Of a stretch of DNA of 64,000 nt, positions 18,820 to 64,000 are shown in pieces. The DNA comes from a virus (Duplodnaviria > Heunggongvirae > Uroviricota > Caudoviricetes). Position 1 is the stretch's first letter. Every line of letters begins with the position of its first letter. The translations under genes were made by a program, and so were the position numbers. The notes beneath the pieces were generated by a model. It saw only the letters and a program-made list of their open reading frames with translations. It did not search any database and had not been told where the DNA came from. The stretch is from positions 224,001 to 288,000 of IMG/VR virus record IMGVR_UViG_3300010049_000009. One strand, 5' to 3'.

Positions 18820-19131
18820 ATGTATATAACAGTAGATATAAATAATTATGCGTGTATATTACTCCTAATTCTATTTAGTGGGTATATTCTATATAAAATT
18901 TTTCAAAAAAAGAAAACAAAGTTGTTATCTTATGAAATGGAAGATTTGTTGATAAATTCGTGGATTTTGAAAGTAGAAGAATCTTATTTCTTCGGAATGA
19001 TTAAGATAACAAAAAAATTCAGATTTAAAATTCCGATAAATTCTGATATTGATGATTATTTAAGGCATTGGGATCAGATAATTGAAGGTAAATATCAAAT
19101 AGGTTTAACAAATAGCGAAGAAGTAAAATGA
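18820..19131 (+). CDS. Hypothetical membrane-anchored protein
   Basis: N-terminal hydrophobic stretch (ACILLLILFSGYILY); tight operon spacing. Confidence 0.6.
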   Translation: MYITVDINNYACILLLILFSGYILYKIFQKKKTKLLSYEMEDLLINSWILKVEESYFFGMIKITKKFRFKIPINSDIDDYLRHWDQIIEGKYQIGLTNSEEVK

Positions 19132-19541
19132 AAAAAGTAGTTAGATTTAGTGTTTTTGAAACAAATAGTAGTAGTTCGCACAGTTTCACTGTTGGTCCCC
19201 TAATAATAGCAGAAGGTTTTGAACAAAAAGCGTGTTATTTATTGGGTTCTTTATTTGCTTGGGTGGAAATGGATATGGAAGAAACAGAAATATTCAAACT
19301 TATACAACGGTTAAAACCGGATTTTGAATATGACCCAAATATCTTTGACAATAGAGCGGAAGATTTTGATTGTGCATTAAATAACGATTTTTTATATAAA
19401 AGGTTTAGACCATCATATAGTTTTCCTAATGATAAACTTGAAGCAACAATAATTGCTTGTAGTGATTGGAAAATAAATGAAAACGTTAAAGAATATTTAA
19501 GAGATGATTCTGTAATTTATTCAGATGGATTTGGAAGATAA
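19128..19541 (+). CDS. Hypothetical phage protein with N-terminal RxxxFETNSSSSHS motif
   Basis: VRFSVFETNSSSSHSF, a motif recurrent in large phages, function unknown. Confidence 0.7.
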   Translation: MKKVVRFSVFETNSSSSHSFTVGPLIIAEGFEQKACYLLGSLFAWVEMDMEETEIFKLIQRLKPDFEYDPNIFDNRAEDFDCALNNDFLYKRFRPSYSFPNDKLEATIIACSDWKINENVKEYLRDDSVIYSDGFGR

Positions 19542-21310: not shown

Positions 21311-22162
21311 ATGCCTATAAAACCATCCAACCACGACAGGTCGGGGTATGAATATTACACCAAAGAAGAAACAGTTAGAAAAATAATTTATCATTATGAT
21401 TATCATTTCCGTAAAAGTGATATAATATGGTTGCCATTTAACAGTGAAGATAAACCCATATTTAAAATAATGTCGGAAAGATACCCAAATAAACGGGTGA
21501 TAACCAACCCCCACAAAAAAGAGTGGTACAACGAAAATATTGGTTGTTATGACTTTTGGGAATGGGTGGATGACGCGGAGTTTAGAACTATGATTCTGAA
21601 TAATAGGGTAATGGTATTTGATAATCCACCATTTAAAGGTGCTACGAATGTGATGCGAAATCTATTAATAGCGAGAGAACGTAATAAAAACCTTAATTTC
21701 ATTCTATTTAGTGACGCAATGACCGGTATGAATAAGGTTACTTCGCTCAATAAGAATGGTGCTATTGCTTATCACATATTGGGTAATGTTGAATTTGATA
21801 ACACCCAAGATAAAGATAAACGTATCAGTATTGCATTATTTTCTAATCTATTCGAGGAAATAAAATTTGTATATGGTATCGGCATTGATCAACGTGATAG
21901 AAATGGTATTCAACATTGGTCTGAAAGGTGTAATCTTCATAAATACAGAGACGAGCGTGGTGGACAGATTAGTTCTGCTGAATTAATTAACGTTTGTGCC
22001 AGGGGTACACCCGAATTAGGTGGTTATGAATTTAAGTTAAATAGATTTGATTTCACCCAAAAGTGTGTGAAGTTTGGGGGTTGTGCAATATACAACTTTG
22101 AAACCGATGAGGAAATGGAAAAACTTAACCAAAAGTTAGGTTTAGAAAACAGATATGGGTAA
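21311..22162 (+). CDS. Putative adenine-specific DNA methyltransferase
   Basis: EYYT, IWLPFN (degenerate motif I), FDNPPF (motif IV). Confidence 0.6.
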   Translation: MPIKPSNHDRSGYEYYTKEETVRKIIYHYDYHFRKSDIIWLPFNSEDKPIFKIMSERYPNKRVITNPHKKEWYNENIGCYDFWEWVDDAEFRTMILNNRVMVFDNPPFKGATNVMRNLLIARERNKNLNFILFSDAMTGMNKVTSLNKNGAIAYHILGNVEFDNTQDKDKRISIALFSNLFEEIKFVYGIGIDQRDRNGIQHWSERCNLHKYRDERGGQISSAELINVCARGTPELGGYEFKLNRFDFTQKCVKFGGCAIYNFETDEEMEKLNQKLGLENRYG

Positions 22163-35612: not shown

Positions 35613-35843
35613 ATGACAGTAGAATGGACAAGAGCAGCACGTTGTGAAGATTGTTATTTTTGTGGATATTACCGCCCACGAAGAAAAGACGGTACAACAT
35701 GTTCTAAGAGAAGACACAAATGCGCACTTAAAAAGATACACGTTACCCTTAAACAACCGGTTTGTTCTGATTGGCAAATGTCAGATTCGGGTGAACCAAG
35801 TTATATTGGACATATTGAAATAGGTGTTTTATTTAGAGAATGA
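35613..35843 (+). CDS. Cys-rich putative zinc-binding protein
   Basis: CEDCYFC...C...C...C pattern. Confidence 0.6.
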   Translation: MTVEWTRAARCEDCYFCGYYRPRRKDGTTCSKRRHKCALKKIHVTLKQPVCSDWQMSDSGEPSYIGHIEIGVLFRE

Positions 35844-35844
35844 A

Positions 35845-36618
35845 ATGGAATATACTTGGAATAACATTTATAATGTTGATTGTTTGATTGGAATGAAGGA
35901 ATTATCAAACAACTGTGTAGATTTGGTTGTCACTTCACCACCCTATGATGATTTACGAAATTATAATGGTTATTCATTCAATTTTGAAGAAATTGCTAAA
36001 GAATTATTCCGAACACTAAAACAAGGTGGCGTAATGGTGTGGGTTGTCGGCGACAAAATCAAAAACGGTAATAAGAGTTTGACAAGTTTTCGACAAGGAA
36101 TCACGTTTCAAGAAATAGGATTCAACGTTCATGACGTAATGATATACCAAAAGAAAAACACCCCATTTATGCGCTCTAATGCTTACACAAATTGTTTTGA
36201 ATTTATGTTTGTGTTATCAAAAGGAAAACCAAAAACCTTCAACCCACTCAAAACACGTACTGTTCGACACGGTGTTGAAAAATTGGTAGCAAATAAAAAA
36301 GCAGATGGTGTAAATAATAAGGTCGTTGCTGAATTAAAAAAGGAAAAAACCTTAAACAATATATGGGAATATGCCGTTGGATCGGGTGGTTCTACCAAAG
36401 ATAAAATTGCATTTCAACACACCGCAATTTTCCCCGAAAAACTTGCACAAGACCACATATTATCGTGGTCAAACGTAGGTGATTTGGTTTTTGATCCAAT
36501 GTGTGGGTCGGGAACCACTTGTAAAATGGCAAAACTTAACAAACGTAATTATTTGGGTATGGAAATATCACCTGAATATACGGAATTATCAATAAAACGT
36601 GTAAATTTAATAAAATGA
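35845..36618 (+). CDS. Beta-class N4-C/N6-A DNA methyltransferase
   Basis: VTSPPY (motif IV) near N-terminus, HTAIFP, DPMCGSGTT (motif I) near C-terminus. Confidence 0.92.
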   Translation: MEYTWNNIYNVDCLIGMKELSNNCVDLVVTSPPYDDLRNYNGYSFNFEEIAKELFRTLKQGGVMVWVVGDKIKNGNKSLTSFRQGITFQEIGFNVHDVMIYQKKNTPFMRSNAYTNCFEFMFVLSKGKPKTFNPLKTRTVRHGVEKLVANKKADGVNNKVVAELKKEKTLNNIWEYAVGSGGSTKDKIAFQHTAIFPEKLAQDHILSWSNVGDLVFDPMCGSGTTCKMAKLNKRNYLGMEISPEYTELSIKRVNLIK

Positions 36619-37313: not shown

Positions 37314-37914
37314 AAAGTTAGGAAATATTGTTGCACAAAAATCTGATTTGCGTTTAATGAATAAAGTCAGTTTTATTCATTACACAGAGGTTATGACGGA
37401 TATTATAAATGATATTCCAACTCTTATTATTGGTTGGAATAACGTAAAACGACTATATCCCGACACCCCATTGTCAATTCTAAAAGAAAAAATTGATAAT
37501 AAAACATGGTGGTGTTTTAGCCCACAGGAAAAAAACACAAAACATATTGAATGTGTATCAGAATTTTATCAAACTATAATTGAAATAATCAAAGAGAAAA
37601 TACCATATCATTTCATTAATATTTTTGAATTAACACTATCGGAAACAAAAGAAATTATATCCACATTAAATTCTAATACACGTGTGGTATGTTATGTGCA
37701 TTATAATTTTATGTATGTTTACATTAACAATGAAGTGTTGGGGTTTAATCTTGAAGATATTGAATATTTGGGGATTCCGAAAAATAAAATACTCAAATAT
37801 TTTTATAATAATACGAATAACAGTATATTTTACAAAGCGGATTTTCTTCAAGAAGAAGTAATGCAAATAATACAAAACAATTTATACTTAATACCCATTT
37901 TTTATGAAGGATAA
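37306..37914 (+). CDS. Hypothetical phage protein (PTLIIGW motif)
   Basis: 202-aa ORF in operon. Confidence 0.7.
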   Translation: MIRKLGNIVAQKSDLRLMNKVSFIHYTEVMTDIINDIPTLIIGWNNVKRLYPDTPLSILKEKIDNKTWWCFSPQEKNTKHIECVSEFYQTIIEIIKEKIPYHFINIFELTLSETKEIISTLNSNTRVVCYVHYNFMYVYINNEVLGFNLEDIEYLGIPKNKILKYFYNNTNNSIFYKADFLQEEVMQIIQNNLYLIPIFYEG

Positions 37915-38734
37915 AAAGATTAATTCTAGTTTAAGATCATTTGGTGGTAAATCAAATATGCTTAATAGTCTGTATGAATATTTTCCACCTGCCGACCAAT
38001 ATGGTGGATACGTAGAACCATTTATGGGGTCGTTGGTTGTGGGGTTAAACCTACCACACGACAAATGTTCTTTAATAGTTAATGATTTGAATAAAAATAT
38101 TTATTCATTCTTTAAGGTTGTACAAGATAAAGATATGTTTGCGAAGTTGAAAGCAAAACTTGATATTGTTTTTTATTCGGAAGACATTTTTTGGGAGTCT
38201 TTGGAATGGATAAAAGAAGTGGGACAAAAGGATGGTTATTCAATTGAAGATAGAGCATACCATTTTTTCATTGTAAATAGAATGTCTTATTCGGGAAACA
38301 ATCAAAGTTTCGGAAAAAATATGGTTATCAGAAGAGGTGTTTCCAAGTCGGTATCAGATACGTTTAGCACAATAGACGGAATGACCGAAACACACCAAAG
38401 AATACAACATTTTGTTATATTAAACAGAGACGCTCTCGAAATAATAGATAATTACAACAAATCCAATTACTTTTTCTATATGGACCCACCGTATCACCAC
38501 AGCACACGCACCGCTGCAAGATATCCGGTAGATATGAGTGATGCTCAACAGGAACAATTTGTTAATTTAATCGTAAATGGGGATGCAAAATACTTGGTGT
38601 CAGGATATAGGTGTGAATTATATGACGATGTTTTCTTATCCAATGGTTGGAAAAGGGTTGATTTCAACATAAACACAGTCACAGGGCAGAATAAACCCAA
38701 AGAAAAAACAGAATCATTATACATGAATTATTAA
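37904..38734 (+). CDS. dam: Dam-like (D12 class) DNA adenine methyltransferase
   Basis: GGKS, YVEPFMGS, NDLN, YMDPPY. Confidence 0.9.
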   Translation: MKDKKINSSLRSFGGKSNMLNSLYEYFPPADQYGGYVEPFMGSLVVGLNLPHDKCSLIVNDLNKNIYSFFKVVQDKDMFAKLKAKLDIVFYSEDIFWESLEWIKEVGQKDGYSIEDRAYHFFIVNRMSYSGNNQSFGKNMVIRRGVSKSVSDTFSTIDGMTETHQRIQHFVILNRDALEIIDNYNKSNYFFYMDPPYHHSTRTAARYPVDMSDAQQEQFVNLIVNGDAKYLVSGYRCELYDDVFLSNGWKRVDFNINTVTGQNKPKEKTESLYMNY

Positions 38735-43344: not shown

Positions 43345-43803
43345 ATGACACATCGGGAATTATGCAAAGCCGGAGCATCATTTATGAAACGGTACGGTAT
43401 TGCAAAGTGGGAAAAACCCACATATGTAGTATGCGAATTAGAACGTTGCGGAGAATCCCCTGATGTATTTGGTTTCGGTGGTGCGCGCACACAATTAATT
43501 GAGGTCAAAACATCACGTGCAGATTTTCTTGCCGACAAAAAGAAACTTTGGCGAATAAATCCCGAAATGGGTTTGGGTGAATTGCGGTCCTTTCTTTGTA
43601 TGGAAGGTCTTATTTTAGAAGGAGAGTTGCCGCTGAATTGGGGTCTATTATATTGTGACAACAAACAGAGGATCGGATTAATTCGCGAACCATATATTCA
43701 AGCAGCGTGTTCGTATCAAGAAATGAATCTTGCTGCGTCAGTGTTGAGAAGAGAGGGGGTAAAGTCAAAAATTTTTTCATATAAAAAATATAAAAATGAA
43801 TAG
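43345..43803 (+). CDS. PD-(D/E)xK nuclease-fold protein (MmcB-like)
   Basis: ESPDVFGF...LIEVKTSRADFLADKKK...ELPLNWGL. Confidence 0.7.
   Translation: MTHRELCKAGASFMKRYGIAKWEKPTYVVCELERCGESPDVFGFGGARTQLIEVKTSRADFLADKKKLWRINPEMGLGELRSFLCMEGLILEGELPLNWGLLYCDNKQRIGLIREPYIQAACSYQEMNLAASVLRREGVKSKIFSYKKYKNE
43672..43698 (+). promoter_or_regulatory. Intragenic ATCGGATTA-N12-TATATT promoter upstream of sigma genes
   Basis: Perfect motif and spacing retained inside a coding sequence. Confidence 0.7.
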
Positions 43804-44043: not shown

Positions 44044-45153
44044 ATGAGAAGTAGTCTTAATACGAAGAAAGTTGGTTTTTTTACGGAAGCAAATGATGTT
44101 GTGAGTGCTTATTACAAGGATATACGCGACACAATGACATTATTACCCGAAGAAGAAGTGGCATTGTTCAGAGCATATAAAGAAAATGGTGATGAAAAGG
44201 CGCGGATTAAATTAATCGAAGCAAATCAAAAATTTGTGGTTTCTGTTGCCAAAAAATACATCAACAATACCAACCAATCAATTTTATCCGACCTAATCAA
44301 TGAGGGAAACATTGGGTTGATGACCGCATTAGAAAATTTTAATATGGAGAGGGGTTTCAAATTCATAACATATGCTGTGTGGTATATCAAAAGAGAAATC
44401 CAAAACTTCATAATTGATAACAAATTGGTTGCTCAAACAAATTTGCAAAAAACAATATTCCATGTTGATAAAATTAAGGAGAAATTCCGAAACATTAATG
44501 GAAGGGAAATGGATGTTGATGAATTAATGGAAGAGTTGGAACAACAACACAACGTAAAAATAATTGATAAAAGTGATTTGTATGTTTTATCCTTTGATTC
44601 GATTGACACACCGGCGACACCAAAAACAGAGCAAGACGAATTTTCTCCAACCGAAAGTGAGTTCAATAATATGTTTTACACACAAAACACCATTATTGAC
44701 ATAATCGATGACGAGGATAATAAAATATTAGCCAAAGAATATTTGACAATATTATTACCACGTGAGCGGGAAATCGTTGAATTATATTACGGTATAAATA
44801 CATTTGCTGAATATACTTTGGATGATATTGCTGATAACTATGGTTTCACTACCGAAAGAATTAGACAAATCATTAAAAATGCGATTGACATAATGAAAAT
44901 ACGTCATAAAGTTAGTAGAATTGACGAAATAAAACAATATGTAACGCTATTATCAAGAGTAGAGGTGTATTTATTAAACTTACATCTAATGCAAAAATTT
45001 ACACCACAGGATATTTCCGAGAGATCGGATTTTACCGCCGAAAGTATTCAACAGGCGTTGTGTGGTGCGATAGAAATAGTTTATAACTTTTATAAATTTA
45101 GATTAAATGAAAATAGATACGAGGTTAAAGTCAAAAATCTTTCAGCGGAGTGA
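44044..45153 (+). CDS. RpoD/sigma70-family sigma factor 1 with extra C-terminal region-4-like repeat
   Basis: ANQKFVVSVAKKY, DLINEGNIGL, GFKFITYAVWYI, region 4 TLDDIADNYGFTTERIRQI. Confidence 0.9.
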   Translation: MRSSLNTKKVGFFTEANDVVSAYYKDIRDTMTLLPEEEVALFRAYKENGDEKARIKLIEANQKFVVSVAKKYINNTNQSILSDLINEGNIGLMTALENFNMERGFKFITYAVWYIKREIQNFIIDNKLVAQTNLQKTIFHVDKIKEKFRNINGREMDVDELMEELEQQHNVKIIDKSDLYVLSFDSIDTPATPKTEQDEFSPTESEFNNMFYTQNTIIDIIDDEDNKILAKEYLTILLPREREIVELYYGINTFAEYTLDDIADNYGFTTERIRQIIKNAIDIMKIRHKVSRIDEIKQYVTLLSRVEVYLLNLHLMQKFTPQDISERSDFTAESIQQALCGAIEIVYNFYKFRLNENRYEVKVKNLSAE

Positions 45154-46021
45154 CTCATTACAAAAATTCTACACCGACATTGCCAAATACCCTATTTTGG
45201 GGGTTGATGAGGAAGTAGAACTCTTTCACTCTTATAGAAATGACGGCGACATAAGGGCTAGGGATAAAATAATCCAAAGCAACCAACGCTTCGTAGTGTC
45301 GGTTGCCAAAAAATACGCCAAAACAGAAATCGAATTAATGGATATGATTTCAGAAGGAAACATTGGGTTGATGAAGGCGGCTGAAAAATTTGATACCACC
45401 TATGGATTCAAGTTTATAAGTTATGCAGTACATTGGATATATTCTTACATTTCAACATATTTGAATAAGAGGGAATTAATCAAGAAAAACGTTGATTATC
45501 AACTCCGAAAGAAAGTTGAAGAGATAAGGAAAGAACTCAATAAAGAGGGGTGGGATGTAAATATCAGTACAATAGCATCTATATTAAAGGATAGACATAA
45601 TATCCACGTAAGCGAAGAAGAGTTATGTGCAATATCCACCATTTCTATTGATATTCCAATAGACGACACAGATTATGTTTCCGGTCTAACAGATTTCAAT
45701 GAGTTTTACTGTTCTCACAATGAGGTTACAGATGCCATTGATGACGACCATAACAAGTTTCTTGTGGAAACATATTTGAGTTATCTAACAGCCAAAGAAC
45801 AAGAAGTCATCAAACTTTACTTCGGGATTGATGGTGAAGAAGCGTTAGGAACATTTGCAATGGTCGCCCAAAGATTGGAAATACCCAATCACCGCGCTGC
45901 TGGTCTTTTTCACAGAGGATTACGTAAAATGCAAATAGAATTTCGGAGAACAAAAAAACGAAGATCGGATTATTTTAGTAAAAATATATTAAGTGATAGT
46001 TATAAATTTTTAAATTCATAA
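45107..46021 (+). CDS. RpoD/sigma70-family sigma factor 2 with divergent region 4.2
   Basis: SNQRFVVSVAKKY, DMISEGNIGLMKAAEKFD, GFKFISYAVHWI. Confidence 0.9.
   Translation: MKIDTRLKSKIFQRSDSLQKFYTDIAKYPILGVDEEVELFHSYRNDGDIRARDKIIQSNQRFVVSVAKKYAKTEIELMDMISEGNIGLMKAAEKFDTTYGFKFISYAVHWIYSYISTYLNKRELIKKNVDYQLRKKVEEIRKELNKEGWDVNISTIASILKDRHNIHVSEEELCAISTISIDIPIDDTDYVSGLTDFNEFYCSHNEVTDAIDDDHNKFLVETYLSYLTAKEQEVIKLYFGIDGEEALGTFAMVAQRLEIPNHRAAGLFHRGLRKMQIEFRRTKKRRSDYFSKNILSDSYKFLNS
45964..45990 (+). promoter_or_regulatory. ATCGGATTA-N12-TATATT promoter upstream of parB-like gene
   Basis: Exact motif and spacing. Confidence 0.7.
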
Positions 46022-58625: not shown

Positions 58626-58652
58626 ATCGGATTAATTTATTGTTTTTATATT
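58626..58652 (+). promoter_or_regulatory. ATCGGATTA-N12-TATATT promoter upstream of helicase
   Basis: Exact motif and spacing. Confidence 0.72.
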
Positions 58653-58680: not shown

Positions 58681-60606
58681 ATGAAAGCAAGTAAATATCA
58701 AGAAGCGATCTATGATTGGGTAAAAAATGGTAAAGGAAGTTGTGTAGTTGAGGCTATCGCCGGATCGGGTAAAACTACTGTGTTGAAAGATGTGGTAAAA
58801 CTCATTCCTGACGACAAAAGAGTGTTGATGATAGCCTTCAACAAAAGTATTGTTGATGAACTTCAAAGAAAAATCCAACAATCGAATACAAAGATATGTA
58901 CATCACATTCATTGGGTTTTCTTATGTTGAAACAACATTTCAAATATCAAGATTACACCCCACAACTAAATGTAGATGAATACAAATATCGTACCTACAT
59001 TAAAAGGGAATTAAAAACCCTTACATTGGGCATTGAGTTTAAGGATAGAACAGAAGCGGAAGAGTTTAAAGAAGTAATTCTATCTTTGATTGATTTGTGT
59101 CGCTTTTACTTGTGTGAAACCAACGAACAGATTGAAACAATCGCCGAAAAATATAACTTTTTAGTTAATTCAGACCACGTCAGAATTATTAAGAATGTTA
59201 TTAATTGGGGTAAAACAAACCTCGAAACAATAGACTTCGGAGATATGGTAAGTTTACCAAATTATCTGAATATTGTTATCAATTCGTGTAAGTATGATTG
59301 GGTGCTTGTTGACGAGGCACAGGATTTGAGCGTTGCCCAACAAGAGTTGGTCAAAAGAACTGCAAAGAAAGGTGGTACAAGGTTTATATACGTTGGTGAC
59401 GGTTCACAATGTATTCAAACATTTGCCGGAAGCGACAACGAAGCGTTTCAAAAATTGAAATCCCTTCCAAATACCATTTCACTACCATTGTCAATTAATT
59501 ATAGATGTCCTTCATTTGTTGAGGGTCTTGCCCGACAATTTGTACCAAACTTCGAGGTTTTCAATAAACAAAGAGCAGGTATAACAAGACGTAATGTTCG
59601 TGTGGTAGACATTAAAAATAACTCTATGGTTATTTGTCGCAAAACACAACCACTGATTGAACTCTATCTTATGTTAATCAAAGAAAACAGAAAGTGTTAT
59701 ATCAAGGGGTTGGATATTGGAAACACCATTATTGAGGTGATAGAAAGATTGGATACACCATATATCGCCGCTGATTTGAGAGGTGATGGTGTAATACCAA
59801 AATTGTATAAACAATTATTTGAGCATCGGGATTCTATTATGAAGAAATTCAAAATTGACGTGTATGATGCCACAAATGAGAGTTTCTTCCAGCGAAAACT
59901 CGAAACAATTAACGTTATAAAGGCGTTGTCAGAAGGAATTACCGAAACATACCAACTGATAGATAAATGTAAGAGGGTTTTCAGACAACAAAACACTGAC
60001 GGTATTTGTTTGATAACAAACCATAAAGCCAAAGGGTTGGAAAATGATGTTGTCTATCATCTTTGTCCGTCATTGCTTCCCGACAAAAGAGCAAAAAAAG
60101 ATTGGGAAATACAGACAGAACAAAATTTAGAATATGTTCTTTACACCCGGACAAAAAATGAGTTTTATACCATATCGGAAGAGGATTTTCCTCCACCACA
60201 AGGTAGTAAAGATATAAAAGAATTAGTGGCATATCTCAAAGAGGTTGAACATATGTTAAGTAGAAAAACAACAGATGTTGAGAAGTCAAATGTTACAAAG
60301 AAGTTAGAACCACCTAAACCCAAGACCGAATCACAAAAAAAGGCGAGTGATTTAATGGATAAGGTAATGGAAAAGAAAAAAGAAGAGTTTGCTCTTATCC
60401 AAAAGTATAACCGAATTATGGTTGGTAAAACAATTGAAGATTGTTATATTATCTTCAATGATTTCGGAATAACATCTGACATTAATATCGCCACAATCAA
60501 CGGAAAACCGTATGAGGGTAGAAAAAAGGGTAAAAAAGATACAATTAACGTTGATATTGATGATCATAAATTAATAGTTTTAGAAGTAGTAAGAATAGGA
60601 AAATGA
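58681..60606 (+). CDS. UvrD/REP-like superfamily 1 helicase
   Basis: AIAGSGKTT, VDEAQD, VGD..Q, LSINYRC, HKAKGLE, YVLYTR. Confidence 0.92.
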   Translation: MKASKYQEAIYDWVKNGKGSCVVEAIAGSGKTTVLKDVVKLIPDDKRVLMIAFNKSIVDELQRKIQQSNTKICTSHSLGFLMLKQHFKYQDYTPQLNVDEYKYRTYIKRELKTLTLGIEFKDRTEAEEFKEVILSLIDLCRFYLCETNEQIETIAEKYNFLVNSDHVRIIKNVINWGKTNLETIDFGDMVSLPNYLNIVINSCKYDWVLVDEAQDLSVAQQELVKRTAKKGGTRFIYVGDGSQCIQTFAGSDNEAFQKLKSLPNTISLPLSINYRCPSFVEGLARQFVPNFEVFNKQRAGITRRNVRVVDIKNNSMVICRKTQPLIELYLMLIKENRKCYIKGLDIGNTIIEVIERLDTPYIAADLRGDGVIPKLYKQLFEHRDSIMKKFKIDVYDATNESFFQRKLETINVIKALSEGITETYQLIDKCKRVFRQQNTDGICLITNHKAKGLENDVVYHLCPSLLPDKRAKKDWEIQTEQNLEYVLYTRTKNEFYTISEEDFPPPQGSKDIKELVAYLKEVEHMLSRKTTDVEKSNVTKKLEPPKPKTESQKKASDLMDKVMEKKKEEFALIQKYNRIMVGKTIEDCYIIFNDFGITSDINIATINGKPYEGRKKGKKDTINVDIDDHKLIVLEVVRIGK

Positions 60607-60900: not shown

Positions 60901-61000
60901 CATCGGAATAATATTCCAATTTTATATTAGGTGTTATAATATCAAAAATATTTGAGATAGACAAGAAGTACATCGGATTAATATTTTGATTTTATATTAG
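60901..61000 (+). promoter_or_regulatory. Tandem duplicated promoter (70-bp period) upstream of metK
   Basis: catcggaataatattccaattttatattag (60901) and catcggattaatattttgattttatattag (60971). Confidence 0.72.
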
Positions 61001-61046: not shown

Positions 61047-62201
61047 ATGAATAGTATAGTAAAAACGATTAGTAGCGAATACGTAAGTAGTGGACACCCC
61101 GATAAAATGGCGGATTGGATTGCAGATGCAATTGTGGATGCATGTCTCAGAGAAGACCCAAACTCTCGTTGTGGAGTTGAAGTAATGGTAAAAGATAACA
61201 TAGTTGTCTTGGGTGGCGAAATAAAAACGAACGCGGTTAAAACAAACTTTGAAAACATTGTAAAAGATACGTATGCAATTTTGGCTTTTCCTCATAACCA
61301 TAATCTTGATCCTTCAAACATTAAGGTTATAAACTTGATTGGAAAACAATCCGTTGAAATCAACCAAGGAGTTGATAGGGAAGATGGTGAAATCGGGGCT
61401 GGAGACCAGGGTCACGTTTGGGGTTATGCTTCTAACGACACAGATGTTTTTATGCCGTTAGGACATTACATTGCCAAAAAAATTGCAAACTATGTGTCAA
61501 AACAACCATTTTTGGGTCCTGACACAAAAAGTCAAGTTATTGTTAATGAAAGCGCAACCGGAAAAGAAGTAACCTATATTTTGGTAAGTACAATGCACCA
61601 AGTATTAACCCTCGATGAGGTGCGTGACCAAGTGCGCCAAATGATACTTACAAACGAAATGGGGTTAAGTGAAGATATATTCAAAAAATATATCAACTCA
61701 GTCATTAAGATTGATGTCAATCCATGCGGAAGTTGGAATGTGGGTGGACCCGTGAGTGATGCGGGTGTTACGGGAAGAAAATTGGTAGTAGATGCCTTCG
61801 GTGGTTATGCAAGAATTGGTGGGGGTGCTACCAGCGGCAAAGATATGTCAAAGGTTGATAGGTCTGCCCAATACGCCTGTCGTTGGTTAGCGAAAAATAT
61901 TGTGGCGGCAGGTATCGCCGACACTGCCGAAGTTGGATTAAGTTATGCAATTGGTGTAGTAGAACCTTGTTCAATCAACATTGAATTGAATAGAAACCAA
62001 GAACTTGTACCGGCAATATTGGAATACATTGTAAGAAACGTCAGATTGACCCCAAAAGCAATTATGGAGAGATTTGATTTCGCAAACCCACGATTTGAAA
62101 TAGTTACCTGTGAGGGTGCATATGGACACAATGACAATTCCATAACATTTCCTTGGGAGAATTTGAATCTCAAATATGATTTAGTAGGTTTGTTAAAATA
62201 A
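61047..62201 (+). CDS. metK: S-adenosylmethionine synthetase
   Basis: SEYVSSGHPDK, GAGDQG, PDTKSQV, DAGVTGRK, GGGATSGKDMSKVDRS. Confidence 0.97.
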   Translation: MNSIVKTISSEYVSSGHPDKMADWIADAIVDACLREDPNSRCGVEVMVKDNIVVLGGEIKTNAVKTNFENIVKDTYAILAFPHNHNLDPSNIKVINLIGKQSVEINQGVDREDGEIGAGDQGHVWGYASNDTDVFMPLGHYIAKKIANYVSKQPFLGPDTKSQVIVNESATGKEVTYILVSTMHQVLTLDEVRDQVRQMILTNEMGLSEDIFKKYINSVIKIDVNPCGSWNVGGPVSDAGVTGRKLVVDAFGGYARIGGGATSGKDMSKVDRSAQYACRWLAKNIVAAGIADTAEVGLSYAIGVVEPCSINIELNRNQELVPAILEYIVRNVRLTPKAIMERFDFANPRFEIVTCEGAYGHNDNSITFPWENLNLKYDLVGLLK

Positions 62202-62218
62202 ATATATGTTTGTATCTG

Positions 62219-62256
62219 AACCCCCATTTTTGGAAAATTAAGAATGGGGGTTTTTT
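62219..62256 (+). terminator. Intrinsic terminator after metK
   Basis: aacccccatt...aatgggggtt stem followed by a T-run. Confidence 0.8.
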
Positions 62257-62299
62257 AAAATGATTATCCGCAATAATACCCCGAAAAATCCGAAAACAG

Positions 62300-62326
62300 A
62301 TCGGATAAATAACTTCTATTTATATT
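62300..62326 (+). promoter_or_regulatory. ATCGGATAA-N12-TATATT promoter overlapping CTATTTAT motif
   Basis: Both promoter classes are superimposed (CTATTTAT at 62316-62323). Confidence 0.65.
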
Positions 62327-62335
62327 AGGGGTAAA

Positions 62336-63196
62336 ATGATAAAATTTAGTGATATGACAAATGAACAAAAAATAATAGTAGAAGCGGCAGCGAAACGTTT
62401 CCAAACTTTATCCGGTGTGGATAACATTATAATAAAGGAAAGTAACGTGAATAGAATTAGACATTGGGTAACAACCAAAGAAATTGCTATTATTAGTGGT
62501 TGGCGCGATGAAATAAAAGATGTTGTTTCAAACACCGAAAATCAGTGGGATATTGAAAATGTGGGTACAAAACTTACCACAAGTGAAAAAAAAGTAAGAA
62601 ATAGAGAATTAAAATCTACGTTATCTACTTTAGAATATGGTATAACACCAATCAAAGGTAATTTTTGGGAACGATACGGAACAAATAATCAAGTTGAAGT
62701 TAGAGAAGACTCCTACTTTGTTGTTAATTTGAATGATGACCCTAATTTTTTCAAAAATATTTTTGAACTCGGTGTTTATTATAATCAAGACGCTATACTA
62801 CATTCACCAAAAGGTAGTATTGAAGGGTCTTTAATTGGTACTAATAATTGTGAGTATTTTGGATATGGAACCAAAAGAAAAGCAGGAAATTTCATGTCCA
62901 ATGTTGAAAGTGAATTTATGAGTAGAATTGGGAGTATGGGTTTTAGTTTTGTTGAAAAAGAAAAAACAAGAAAAGATTCTAAACCAACTTTTGATGATAG
63001 AAAAAAAATAAGAACTGATAATAATGGTGTTGTATCCAACAAAGATATATCAGAAAGTTTAGACGTAGTATTCACACTTGGATTTGCTGCAAGACATTTA
63101 TGTAATGAAGAAGCGAGAAAAATCTTAATTCCATTAGGGTTAACAAATGAAGGAAAACGAATTGGGTATAAAAATTATCGTAATTTTTTAGTTTAA
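62336..63196 (+). CDS. SAM lyase (T3 SAMase)/DUF3293-like protein with leader
   Basis: IISGWR...RNRELKSTL...IKGNFWE...VREDSYFVV...LGVYYNQDAIL parallels T3 SAMase VSAFR...GCYRE...EE...EQDCVL (recalled sequence). Confidence 0.55.
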   Translation: MIKFSDMTNEQKIIVEAAAKRFQTLSGVDNIIIKESNVNRIRHWVTTKEIAIISGWRDEIKDVVSNTENQWDIENVGTKLTTSEKKVRNRELKSTLSTLEYGITPIKGNFWERYGTNNQVEVREDSYFVVNLNDDPNFFKNIFELGVYYNQDAILHSPKGSIEGSLIGTNNCEYFGYGTKRKAGNFMSNVESEFMSRIGSMGFSFVEKEKTRKDSKPTFDDRKKIRTDNNGVVSNKDISESLDVVFTLGFAARHLCNEEARKILIPLGLTNEGKRIGYKNYRNFLV

Positions 63197-63259
63197 CAAA
63201 TGAAAGGGATAATGGGGTATAATTGCGGATAATCATATTTTTTTCTATTTATATGTATT

Positions 63260-64000
63260 ATGAATATGATAGAACAAAATTTTCTTGTGGAAAGTAGTAA
63301 TAATTATTTAGATAAATTCCAATTCATATTAGGATATAATCCCGCAAAGGGTGGGCAACTTAACGAATCATACCATAGTGAATACCGTGGTTATACTAAC
63401 GTGGGGTTTGTTAAAGACGGTAATCAGTGGACAGCAAAGGGTGGTGATGCATATTTGTTTGTTAATCCCGATCTTCCCGAACACGTGCGTTTTAAGTTCT
63501 TAACAGATAAAGACCTTAATGCTAATTATATTAGTCAACTACCAATATCATTATCGTCAGCTCGTGTAACATTATATCCCGAATATGTGGGAACAATTTA
63601 TGACGAATTAATTAATGGAAAACCAAAAACCGAAGAGGATAAAGAAGCGGATTTGGTTAAACATAAAGAGTTCATGGCAAAATTGAATATCCAAAAAGGG
63701 AGGGTGGTTTTACTACACACTTCCCCACATAGAATTACAGACGGATACATTAAATCAGGTATAAAAAATAATTGGACACCAAACAACGCACAAGGTGGAA
63801 TATTCTTTTGGGCAACCAAAGAACGAGGAATTGATGCAAGCGGTGGTAATTACCATTACTATTGTGCTCTTCCTATTGGCGAAGTATATGATGGTAAAAA
63901 CAACCCGGAAGATTTTAAAGACGATTATGAAGCATTGGAAAAAGGATACAAAGTAATTGTTAATGAATGGAAACAAGGTGGTGTAAGCGGCGGATTTGCT
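63260..64000 (+). CDS. Partial ORF (>=247 aa, not in ORF track); possible ADP-ribosyltransferase-like fold
   Basis: Open from ATG 63260 to the window end; leader ...FILGYNPAKGGQLNE; VLLHTS...GIFFWAT; CTATTTAT at 63245. Confidence 0.7.
   Translation, partial: MNMIEQNFLVESSNNYLDKFQFILGYNPAKGGQLNESYHSEYRGYTNVGFVKDGNQWTAKGGDAYLFVNPDLPEHVRFKFLTDKDLNANYISQLPISLSSARVTLYPEYVGTIYDELINGKPKTEEDKEADLVKHKEFMAKLNIQKGRVVLLHTSPHRITDGYIKSGIKNNWTPNNAQGGIFFWATKERGIDASGGNYHYYCALPIGEVYDGKNNPEDFKDDYEALEKGYKVIVNEWKQGGVSGGFA

Follow-up and report, generated by a model that had tools for sequence, protein, structure and literature searches.

Why would a virus carry, side by side, a gene for making S-adenosylmethionine (SAM) and a gene whose product is predicted to destroy it? 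The question is raised by a stretch of 64,000 nucleotides from the virus record IMGVR_UViG_3300010049_000009 (Caudoviricetes; positions 224,001 to 288,000). We call this stretch the window and write it as G000:C1:224001-288000 in coordinates of the whole record, G000:C1. The pair in question is:

61047 to 62201, + strand: metK, SAM synthetase, 384 amino acids, intact (Pfam, MetK tree)
62336 to 63196, + strand: predicted T3-fold SAM lyase, 286 amino acids, start possibly at 62354

The record has 367,155 bases with direct terminal repeats and is rated complete. It encodes a T4-type portal, a gp23 capsid protein, a gp21-type protease (Peptidase_S77), sheath and tube, and its source is a T4-like jumbo myophage; the host is a guess, Bacteroidota, from Lak phage homologues and one Bacteroidales-labelled cluster member. 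The answer that we tentatively prefer, giving it a little less than an even chance, is that of the initial annotation: an injected lyase would drain SAM at entry, and the phage MetK would resupply SAM for methylation.

The synthetase half of the pair is intact, as first described, since the frame is open and each of the three Pfam domains of S-AdoMet synthetase scores above cut-off in the product. Among 19 checked active-site-region positions, which we take to be the ones that matter, 17 are identical to enterobacterial MetK, with Arg to Ser and Phe to Trp changes at 229-230. In a MetK tree of 58 rows picked from metK loci, near-copies omitted, the protein falls in a 16-row jumbo-phage clade (support 100/100) with a sister clade of 7 rows; Bacteroidota titles were absent among the 80 kept metK matches of a genome scan covering 2 of 64 parts. 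The metK of L001/L064, which is that of L096/L102 (9992-12166), has an in-frame insertion of about 330 amino acids, probably an intein. Consumers of SAM are encoded in the same window:

35824 to 36618, + strand: N6/N4 DNA methyltransferase, SAM consumer (Pfam)
37904 to 38734, + strand: Dam-like D12 adenine methyltransferase, SAM consumer (Pfam)

Three DNA methyltransferases had been counted in the window at first; these two are confirmed by Pfam, whereas the third candidate (21311-22162) has the NPPF motif alone and no Pfam match. Genome-wide there are seven N6/N4 or Dam-type methyltransferase paralogues and three further open reading frames (ORFs) with NPPF.

The second gene is predicted to encode a T3-type SAM lyase, with SAM as the presumed substrate. 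All five motifs and the leader quoted for it in the initial annotation are present, and the protein is laid out as a leader up to Glu35, a domain at about residues 36-210 (with G108, F110, E124, Q151 and D152) and a low-confidence tail. It matches PF23780 (S-AdoMet_lyase) with E 4.8e-6 and 27 bits against a cut-off of 28, and with 28.3 bits, over the cut-off, in a second scan; its relatives lie well above that cut-off. An AlphaFold2 model built from 30 sequences (predicted local distance difference test 77.3, predicted template modelling score 0.75) gave the T3 SAM lyase as its top Foldseek match (8bb1_E, E 3.0e-4, prob 1.00). The VIA comparison with the T3 enzyme gave Z 12.0, with 131/147 residues aligned at 3.0 Å root-mean-square deviation (rmsd). 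Weaker matches were Orf1 (Z 6.2), Svi3-3 (Z 5.8) and a SAM-AMP lyase (Z 4.5), the last ranking among unrelated rows with PII-like folds, which had Z 4.8 or less. The proposed comparison with T3 and Svi3-3 structures therefore places T3 closest. Fold searches alone found a SAM lyase, none being returned by PDB sequence searches with the protein or with its alignment profile. Among 139 relatives shorter than 330 amino acids (from 177 sequence ids), G108 is kept in 138, E124 in 138 and Q151 in all 139. By motif order and spacing these residues correspond to G56, E69 and Q104 of Svi3-3 and to E68 and Q94 of T3 (residue roles from the available text of PMC7877911 and bioRxiv 2023.02.27.530186), and Gly, Glu and Gln are described as strictly conserved in SAM lyases in the available part of PMC7877911. 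The family comprises 2663 clusters at 50% identity (E 0.001), with homologues in Lak phages and in the cultured S-CREM2, PANV1 and Alishewanella phages.

Two more lyase-like genes lie elsewhere in the genome. One (G000:C1:119506-120234, - strand) has a promoter and leader in common with the window's lyase gene and a very divergent domain. The other (G000:C1:66419-67168, - strand) has only the upstream part in common (78% over 77 nucleotides); Asp replaces its catalytic Glu, and Pfam matches it only weakly (E 0.16). Behind the latter lie the tandem paralogues G000:C1:65473-66405 and 64562-65473 (- strand), the first with a lyase-like leader. That three divergent lyase-like genes are kept suggests different substrates, and in this regard the enzyme could cleave a SAM-derived immune signal, e.g. 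SAM-AMP, as the candidate AcrIIIB4 would, instead of SAM, leaving no conflict with MetK. A phage lyase specific for SAM-AMP has been described (PMC12255297), SAM-AMP signalling occurs in Bacteroides, and Tyr58 is replaced by Phe here. However, there is no Cys between G108 and E124, where SAM-AMP lyases have their conserved Cys66, and the fold match is at Z 4.5, so that we regard this explanation as quite improbable. An AcrIIIB4 orthologue was rejected on the loop motif and the fold score; the AcrIIIB4 accession was absent among the listed members of 10 clusters.

A further explanation starts from the best fold matches, which are with T3 SAMase chains taken from complexes with MetK. Phage MetK might be the binding partner of the lyase (a stabiliser, a sponge or an inhibitor-proof replacement of host MetK), on the model of T3 SAMase, which binds the MetK of E. 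coli, and the available text of bioRxiv 2023.02.27.530186 reports that MetK stabilises T3 SAMase. The same text has the T3 contact residues (N-terminal tail, Q103-T106) kept only among close T3 relatives, and the T3 contacts T4, N9, Q103, T104 and H105 are here without evident counterpart, in a mapping made by sequence offset only. We hold this to be very improbable.

If the lyase is to act at entry, it would have to be carried in the virion. Two features at the start of the gene bear on this:

62316 to 62323, + strand: late box CTATTTAT before the lyase gene
62294 to 62416, + strand: promoter-plus-leader cassette in common with G000:C1:119506-120234 (- strand), 85% over 127 nucleotides

The late-type motif had been pointed out initially, and its core is enriched genome-wide: TATTTAT lies within 60 nucleotides upstream of 66 of the 343 genome ORFs of at least 100 amino acids, against 15.3 (maximum 29) in 200 mononucleotide shuffles. 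There is a peak at 21-28 nucleotides upstream (34 of the 66), while the reverse complement (42/343 ORFs) has no positional peak. The box stands before the genes for protease, portal, sheath and tube and before the capsid gene's upstream neighbour, though not directly before the capsid or terminase gene. The motif [ILVM]xE stands exactly at the boundary between leader and conserved domain in 131 of the 139 relatives, whose leaders are variable; the lyase leader ends at such a gp21-type site, and a gp21-type protease is encoded in the genome. Furthermore, the lyases 62336-63196 and G000:C1:119506-120234, divergent as they are, have 21 identical leader residues. In the available text of PMC5694885, T4 gp21 cleaves Alt at ITE and LTE, T4 internal proteins are targeted by propeptides of 10-20 residues, and the divergent SPN3US head proteins gp53 and gp54 have identical first 15 residues.

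Additionally, a homologue of the lyase has been found in virions. S-CREM2 ORF6 (HHalign 98.6, E 6e-16; a leader of like kind), named 'SAM hydrolase', was detected there by mass spectrometry according to the available part of PMC10665884. The table values of 19 and 26.3 we take as peptides and percent coverage, and its authors propose that ORF6 enters the host and blunts restriction. In the partial texts at hand, the PANV1 paper held no proteomics, PMC9239159 and PMC2853527 gave nothing on homologues, and the 11 gel bands of CP220 did not match the locus tag of its lyase homologue. Because of the late box, the leader boundary, the gp21-type protease, the identical leaders and the virion homologue, the lyase is likely packaged in the phage head, which bears out on sequence grounds the signs of packaging first noticed.

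The initial idea also implied a split between early and late transcription, and the signals around the two genes do not agree with it:

60902 to 60928, + strand: ATCGGA-N15-TATATT, the first of two bipartite promoter-like sites before metK, putatively of an early/middle class
60972 to 60998, + strand: second bipartite promoter-like site before metK
62218 to 62256, + strand: intrinsic-terminator-like hairpin with T run, between metK and lyase gene
62300 to 62326, + strand: dual promoter-like site, bipartite ATCGGA-N15-TATATT with its -10-like half overlapped by the late box
58681 to 60606, + strand: UvrD-like helicase with the same bipartite promoter at 58626, upstream of metK also in one related group

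The bipartite motif occurs at 83 genome sites, against 1.0 (maximum 3) in 20 shuffles; 63 of the 83 lie in the 300-367 kb small-gene region and 5 are dual. In the window it is found at 43672, 45964, 58626, 60902, 60972 and 62300, among these twice before metK and once each before the helicase and the lyase gene, and all three lyase-like genes of the genome carry an upstream ATCGGA element. From the genes behind it, we infer an early/middle class; two sigma-70-like genes (44044-46021) are candidate readers of the motif. The lyase gene has metK's promoter class besides its late box. Its transcription thus probably takes place together with that of metK and once more late, and this is the finding that counts most against simple early/late timing. 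Since both genes have the same early/middle-type promoter, the hand-over from SAM sink to SAM source would not be a simple early/late switch. The hairpin is stable (-21.2 kcal/mol, z -3.26, 0/200 shuffles as stable), and the terminator and separate promoter between the genes led us to reject a single metK-lyase operon.

These promoters also bring in a reading in which sink and source work simultaneously: early lyase together with MetK would keep free SAM below the need of restriction and bacteriophage exclusion (BREX) systems while the flux feeds the methyltransferases, MetK offsetting the cost of the lyase. The promoter class common to lyase and metK and the ATCGGA element at all three lyase-like genes are consistent with it. 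So are the T3 SAMase, which according to the available text of bioRxiv 2023.02.27.530186 prevents defence yet has little effect on the modification of host DNA, and the lyase found in 6/6 near-complete metK-bearing jumbo records. Such a cycle, however, would burn adenosine triphosphate and methionine, the early/middle label rests only on the genes behind the promoter, and a late box stands at 5 of 9 checked adjacent lyase genes in relatives; we consider this reading unlikely.

Control of metK by SAM itself differs between relatives and this phage. A SAM-II-like motif lies within about 130 nucleotides upstream of metK in 11 loci (L092, L093-L096, L102, L103, L111, L112, L142 and L146), and low SAM would therefore be expected to turn metK on there. 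The L103 motif reaches 39.7 bits (E 1.6e-6) with RF01726, under the gathering score of 44, a score reached by 0 of 7 relatives' loci. In the window, a short SAM-II candidate at about 60890 was not borne out by pattern, Rfam or own-model scans (own model R1 had no base pairs), and the GAUUU...UUGC...GCUAAA aptamer pattern was found nowhere in the genome.

Is the pairing kept in other phages? An alignment scan gave 80 viral metK loci (a single-protein pattern scan had given 1), and 15 of these have a lyase-like gene no farther than about 2.5 kb from metK. All 15 are among the 25 loci of the jumbo MetK clades plus L148; the remaining 55, of which many are short, have none. Adjacency is thus kept in other jumbo phages, a point on which the initial annotation had staked the idea; none of the adverse outcomes named there and examined here came about, as a structural match was found and adjacency recurs. 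Three of the profiles used were seeded from these metK loci, and Pfam served as an independent check: its lyase family was over cut-off for the tested genes in L092, L094, L097, L104, L112 and L142 and sub-threshold in L148. Neither lyase nor gene X (the next gene downstream, described below) had matches in 160 other, mostly cellular, metK loci (1.36 Mb). The metK-adjacent lyases belong to at least four subfamilies and are placed upstream, downstream or fused. By groups, adjacency is seen in 6 of 14; four of these lie in one MetK clade (100/100), and merging them leaves 3 of 11. For the latter the binomial p is 0.0005-0.025 at assumed chance rates of 1.5-6%, a rough figure, since the groups are only partly independent and one of them, L148, is included on a sub-threshold Pfam match. 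Adjacency is also seen in the sister clade (L104-L107) and in L148. All six jumbo records that carry this metK and are at least 90% complete encode a lyase at some position, although lyases are in any case frequent in jumbo phages; a distant metK with no lyase in the record is seen in two small complete ones.

A 155-amino-acid ORF lies between metK and lyase in L062 (9423-9890) and also in L093, L096 and L102. It matches the lyase profile weakly (E about 0.007) and is without the Glu and Gln motifs, so it may be a dead paralogue or an inhibitor; in L094/L095 an intact divergent lyase occupies its place.

Downstream of the lyase follows a gene that bears on how this neighbourhood came about:

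63245 to 63252, + strand: late box before gene X
63260 to 64000, + strand: gene X, 276 amino acids, leader and C-terminal ADP-ribosyltransferase (ART)-like fold, extending to G000:C1:288090

Nearly all of its 50 structural-neighbour rows are of ART fold, at low Z (best 5.6, 111 aligned, rmsd 3.9); Atlas leads are at 0.88 and Pfam gave no match. In most adjacent loci, homologues of gene X either adjoin metK or form fusions with lyase domains. In L092 (10287-12404), L146 and L112 (11278-14232), metK is directly followed by fusions that join an ART-like X domain to two or three lyase domains, and in the Atlas 59 viral proteins with a length of about 372 amino acids form a cluster that likewise combines an X-like structure with PF23780. 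More ART-like/NADAR genes stand near relatives' metK in L104 (7998-8762, - strand; by eye only), L108 (12249-12980, - strand) and L112 (7806-9331). Since X stands beside metK as often as the lyase does, the site may simply collect head-packaged genes; the gene X data fit either such a hotspot or a joint kit acting on SAM and nicotinamide adenine dinucleotide (NAD).

Accordingly, adjacency could be a matter of inherited order, or of a hotspot into which head-packaged effectors insert, with metK serving the many methyltransferases and having no special tie to the lyase. The helicase-metK-lyase-X order is also found in one related group and four of the six adjacent groups lie in one MetK clade, in L103 and L111 X adjoins metK with no lyase there, metK and lyase gene are divided by a terminator, and a distance of about 20 kb or more lies between lyase and metK in G055, G058, G059 and G065. 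On the other side stand the different lyase subfamilies placed upstream, downstream or fused, the adjacency in the sister clade and L148, and the rough binomial p for 3/11 groups (0.0005-0.025). We think this explanation rather unlikely.

Returning to the preferred reading, drain at entry followed by resupply, its steps would run as follows. The lyase would be loaded into the prohead and clipped after Glu35 by the gp21-type protease; the clipped enzyme would be injected and convert SAM to methylthioadenosine (MTA) and homoserine lactone; the drain would blunt SAM-dependent defences at entry; and phage MetK would then replenish SAM for the DNA methyltransferases that the phage itself encodes. 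The change from sink to source would most likely be set after translation, newly made lyase being held down by its uncleaved leader or by prohead capture, or else MetK would outpace it. We infer the substrate, packaging, cleavage, injection, anti-defence effect and use of MetK's SAM from the evidence above.

Several observations weigh against this reading. No lyase was found in the fetched flanks of 10 of the 25 jumbo-clade and L148 loci. Seen from the lyase, metK lies within 10 kb in only 3 of 80 lyase loci, and it occurs in 3 of 49 lyase-bearing records (49 of the 80 loci, mostly longer contigs) and in none of the 3 complete ones; Lak phages have the lyase yet are absent among the MetK matches listed. 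Gene X is tied to metK as often as the lyase is, abutting it without lyase in L103 and L111. At the locus itself, lyase and metK have the same bipartite promoter class, a terminator stands between them, and Rfam and own-model scans found no SAM-II riboswitch (RF01726) upstream of this metK. As for the enzyme, Phe110 sits at the position of Svi3-3 Tyr58, the aromatic residue beneath the sulfonium, where 104 of the 139 relatives have Tyr; the Svi3-3 Y58F change lowers activity fivefold, leaving about a fifth (PMC7877911, available text). Lastly, Glu35-Ser36 could be a structural helix cap and not a cut site, and the S-CREM2 authors allow that ORF6 co-purified (PMC10665884, available part).

A broader version of the preferred reading would be a kit for cofactor takeover. 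Several divergent lyase domains (up to three per protein) would be injected together with an ART-fold domain, all directed to the capsid by a promoter-leader cassette that spreads in copy-and-paste fashion and would keep them inactive until the protease cut. They would drain SAM and SAM-derived immune signals, and a dedicated MetK, riboswitch-controlled in many relatives, would restore the pool for progeny methylation. In this full form we judge it unlikely. Each component is known by itself (T3 SAMase, the SAM hydrolase detected in virions in PMC10665884, metK in many temperate phages), and the pairing appears to be what is new. No description of a phage SAM lyase-metK pair was found in mainly open-access literature, taken as listings and abstract starts, and PMC13037316, in its available part, mentions metK only in a host genome. 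If drain and resupply are real, they would show phage timing of a central cofactor, and the large lyase family would be a widespread injected counter-defence acting before any transcription; the leader cassette is a candidate capsid-targeting signal for uncultured jumbo phages.

Two other elements of the genome were observed. G000:C1:58499-64474 (+ strand) encodes a 1991-amino-acid polyvalent protein with a late box, an InPase domain, WG repeats and a PHROG match to DarB-like antirestriction proteins. A small-ORF family with a FETNSSS motif has many copies (G000:C1 15662-16933, 67302, 100311-102310 and 107329; window 19128-19541).

Compared with known systems, the lyase is most like the T3 SAM lyase, gene 0.3 (PF23780; PDB 8BB1, 7OCK), in its predicted monomer-type fold with C-terminal extension and in the order of Gly, Glu and Gln, with a Glu-Gln spacing of 27 here and 26 in T3; identity is, however, about 15%, and the 35-residue leader, 75-residue tail and late box set the protein described here apart from that of T3. 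Svi3-3 and Orf1 (PDB 6ZM9, 6ZNB; PMC7877911) have the PII-like core and the catalytic Glu/Gln in common with it, whereas their Z is weaker (5.8 and 6.2), Svi3-3 is a trimer and its Tyr58 is Phe here. SAM-AMP lyases and AcrIIIB4 (PDB 9GAD; PMC12255297) belong to the same superfamily, with the Glu/Gln pair, and differ in a Trp/Cys loop motif not present here. S-CREM2 ORF6 has the homologous domain and an acidic leader ending LxE, while it is 414 amino acids long with a long tail, and no metK is among the 18 annotated genes in the 14 kb searched. T4 internal head proteins and Alt (PMC5694885) resemble this locus in the short variable leader ending (I/L)xE, the gp21-type protease and an ART-fold neighbour, a likeness of features for which no homology is claimed. 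On the synthetase side, the metK of streptococcal and other temperate phages (PHROG 1569) is likewise intact, though at about 40% identity and outside the jumbo clade, and the 55 more distant viral metK loci, many of them short, have no adjoining lyase, unlike the jumbo clades. The T3 enzyme, whose gene is transcribed before any other, leaves T3 DNA unmethylated, in contrast to the present phage with its MetK and numerous methyltransferases; T3 gives up methylation, while these phages appear to want two things, no SAM at entry for host restriction or BREX and ample SAM later for many methyltransferases.

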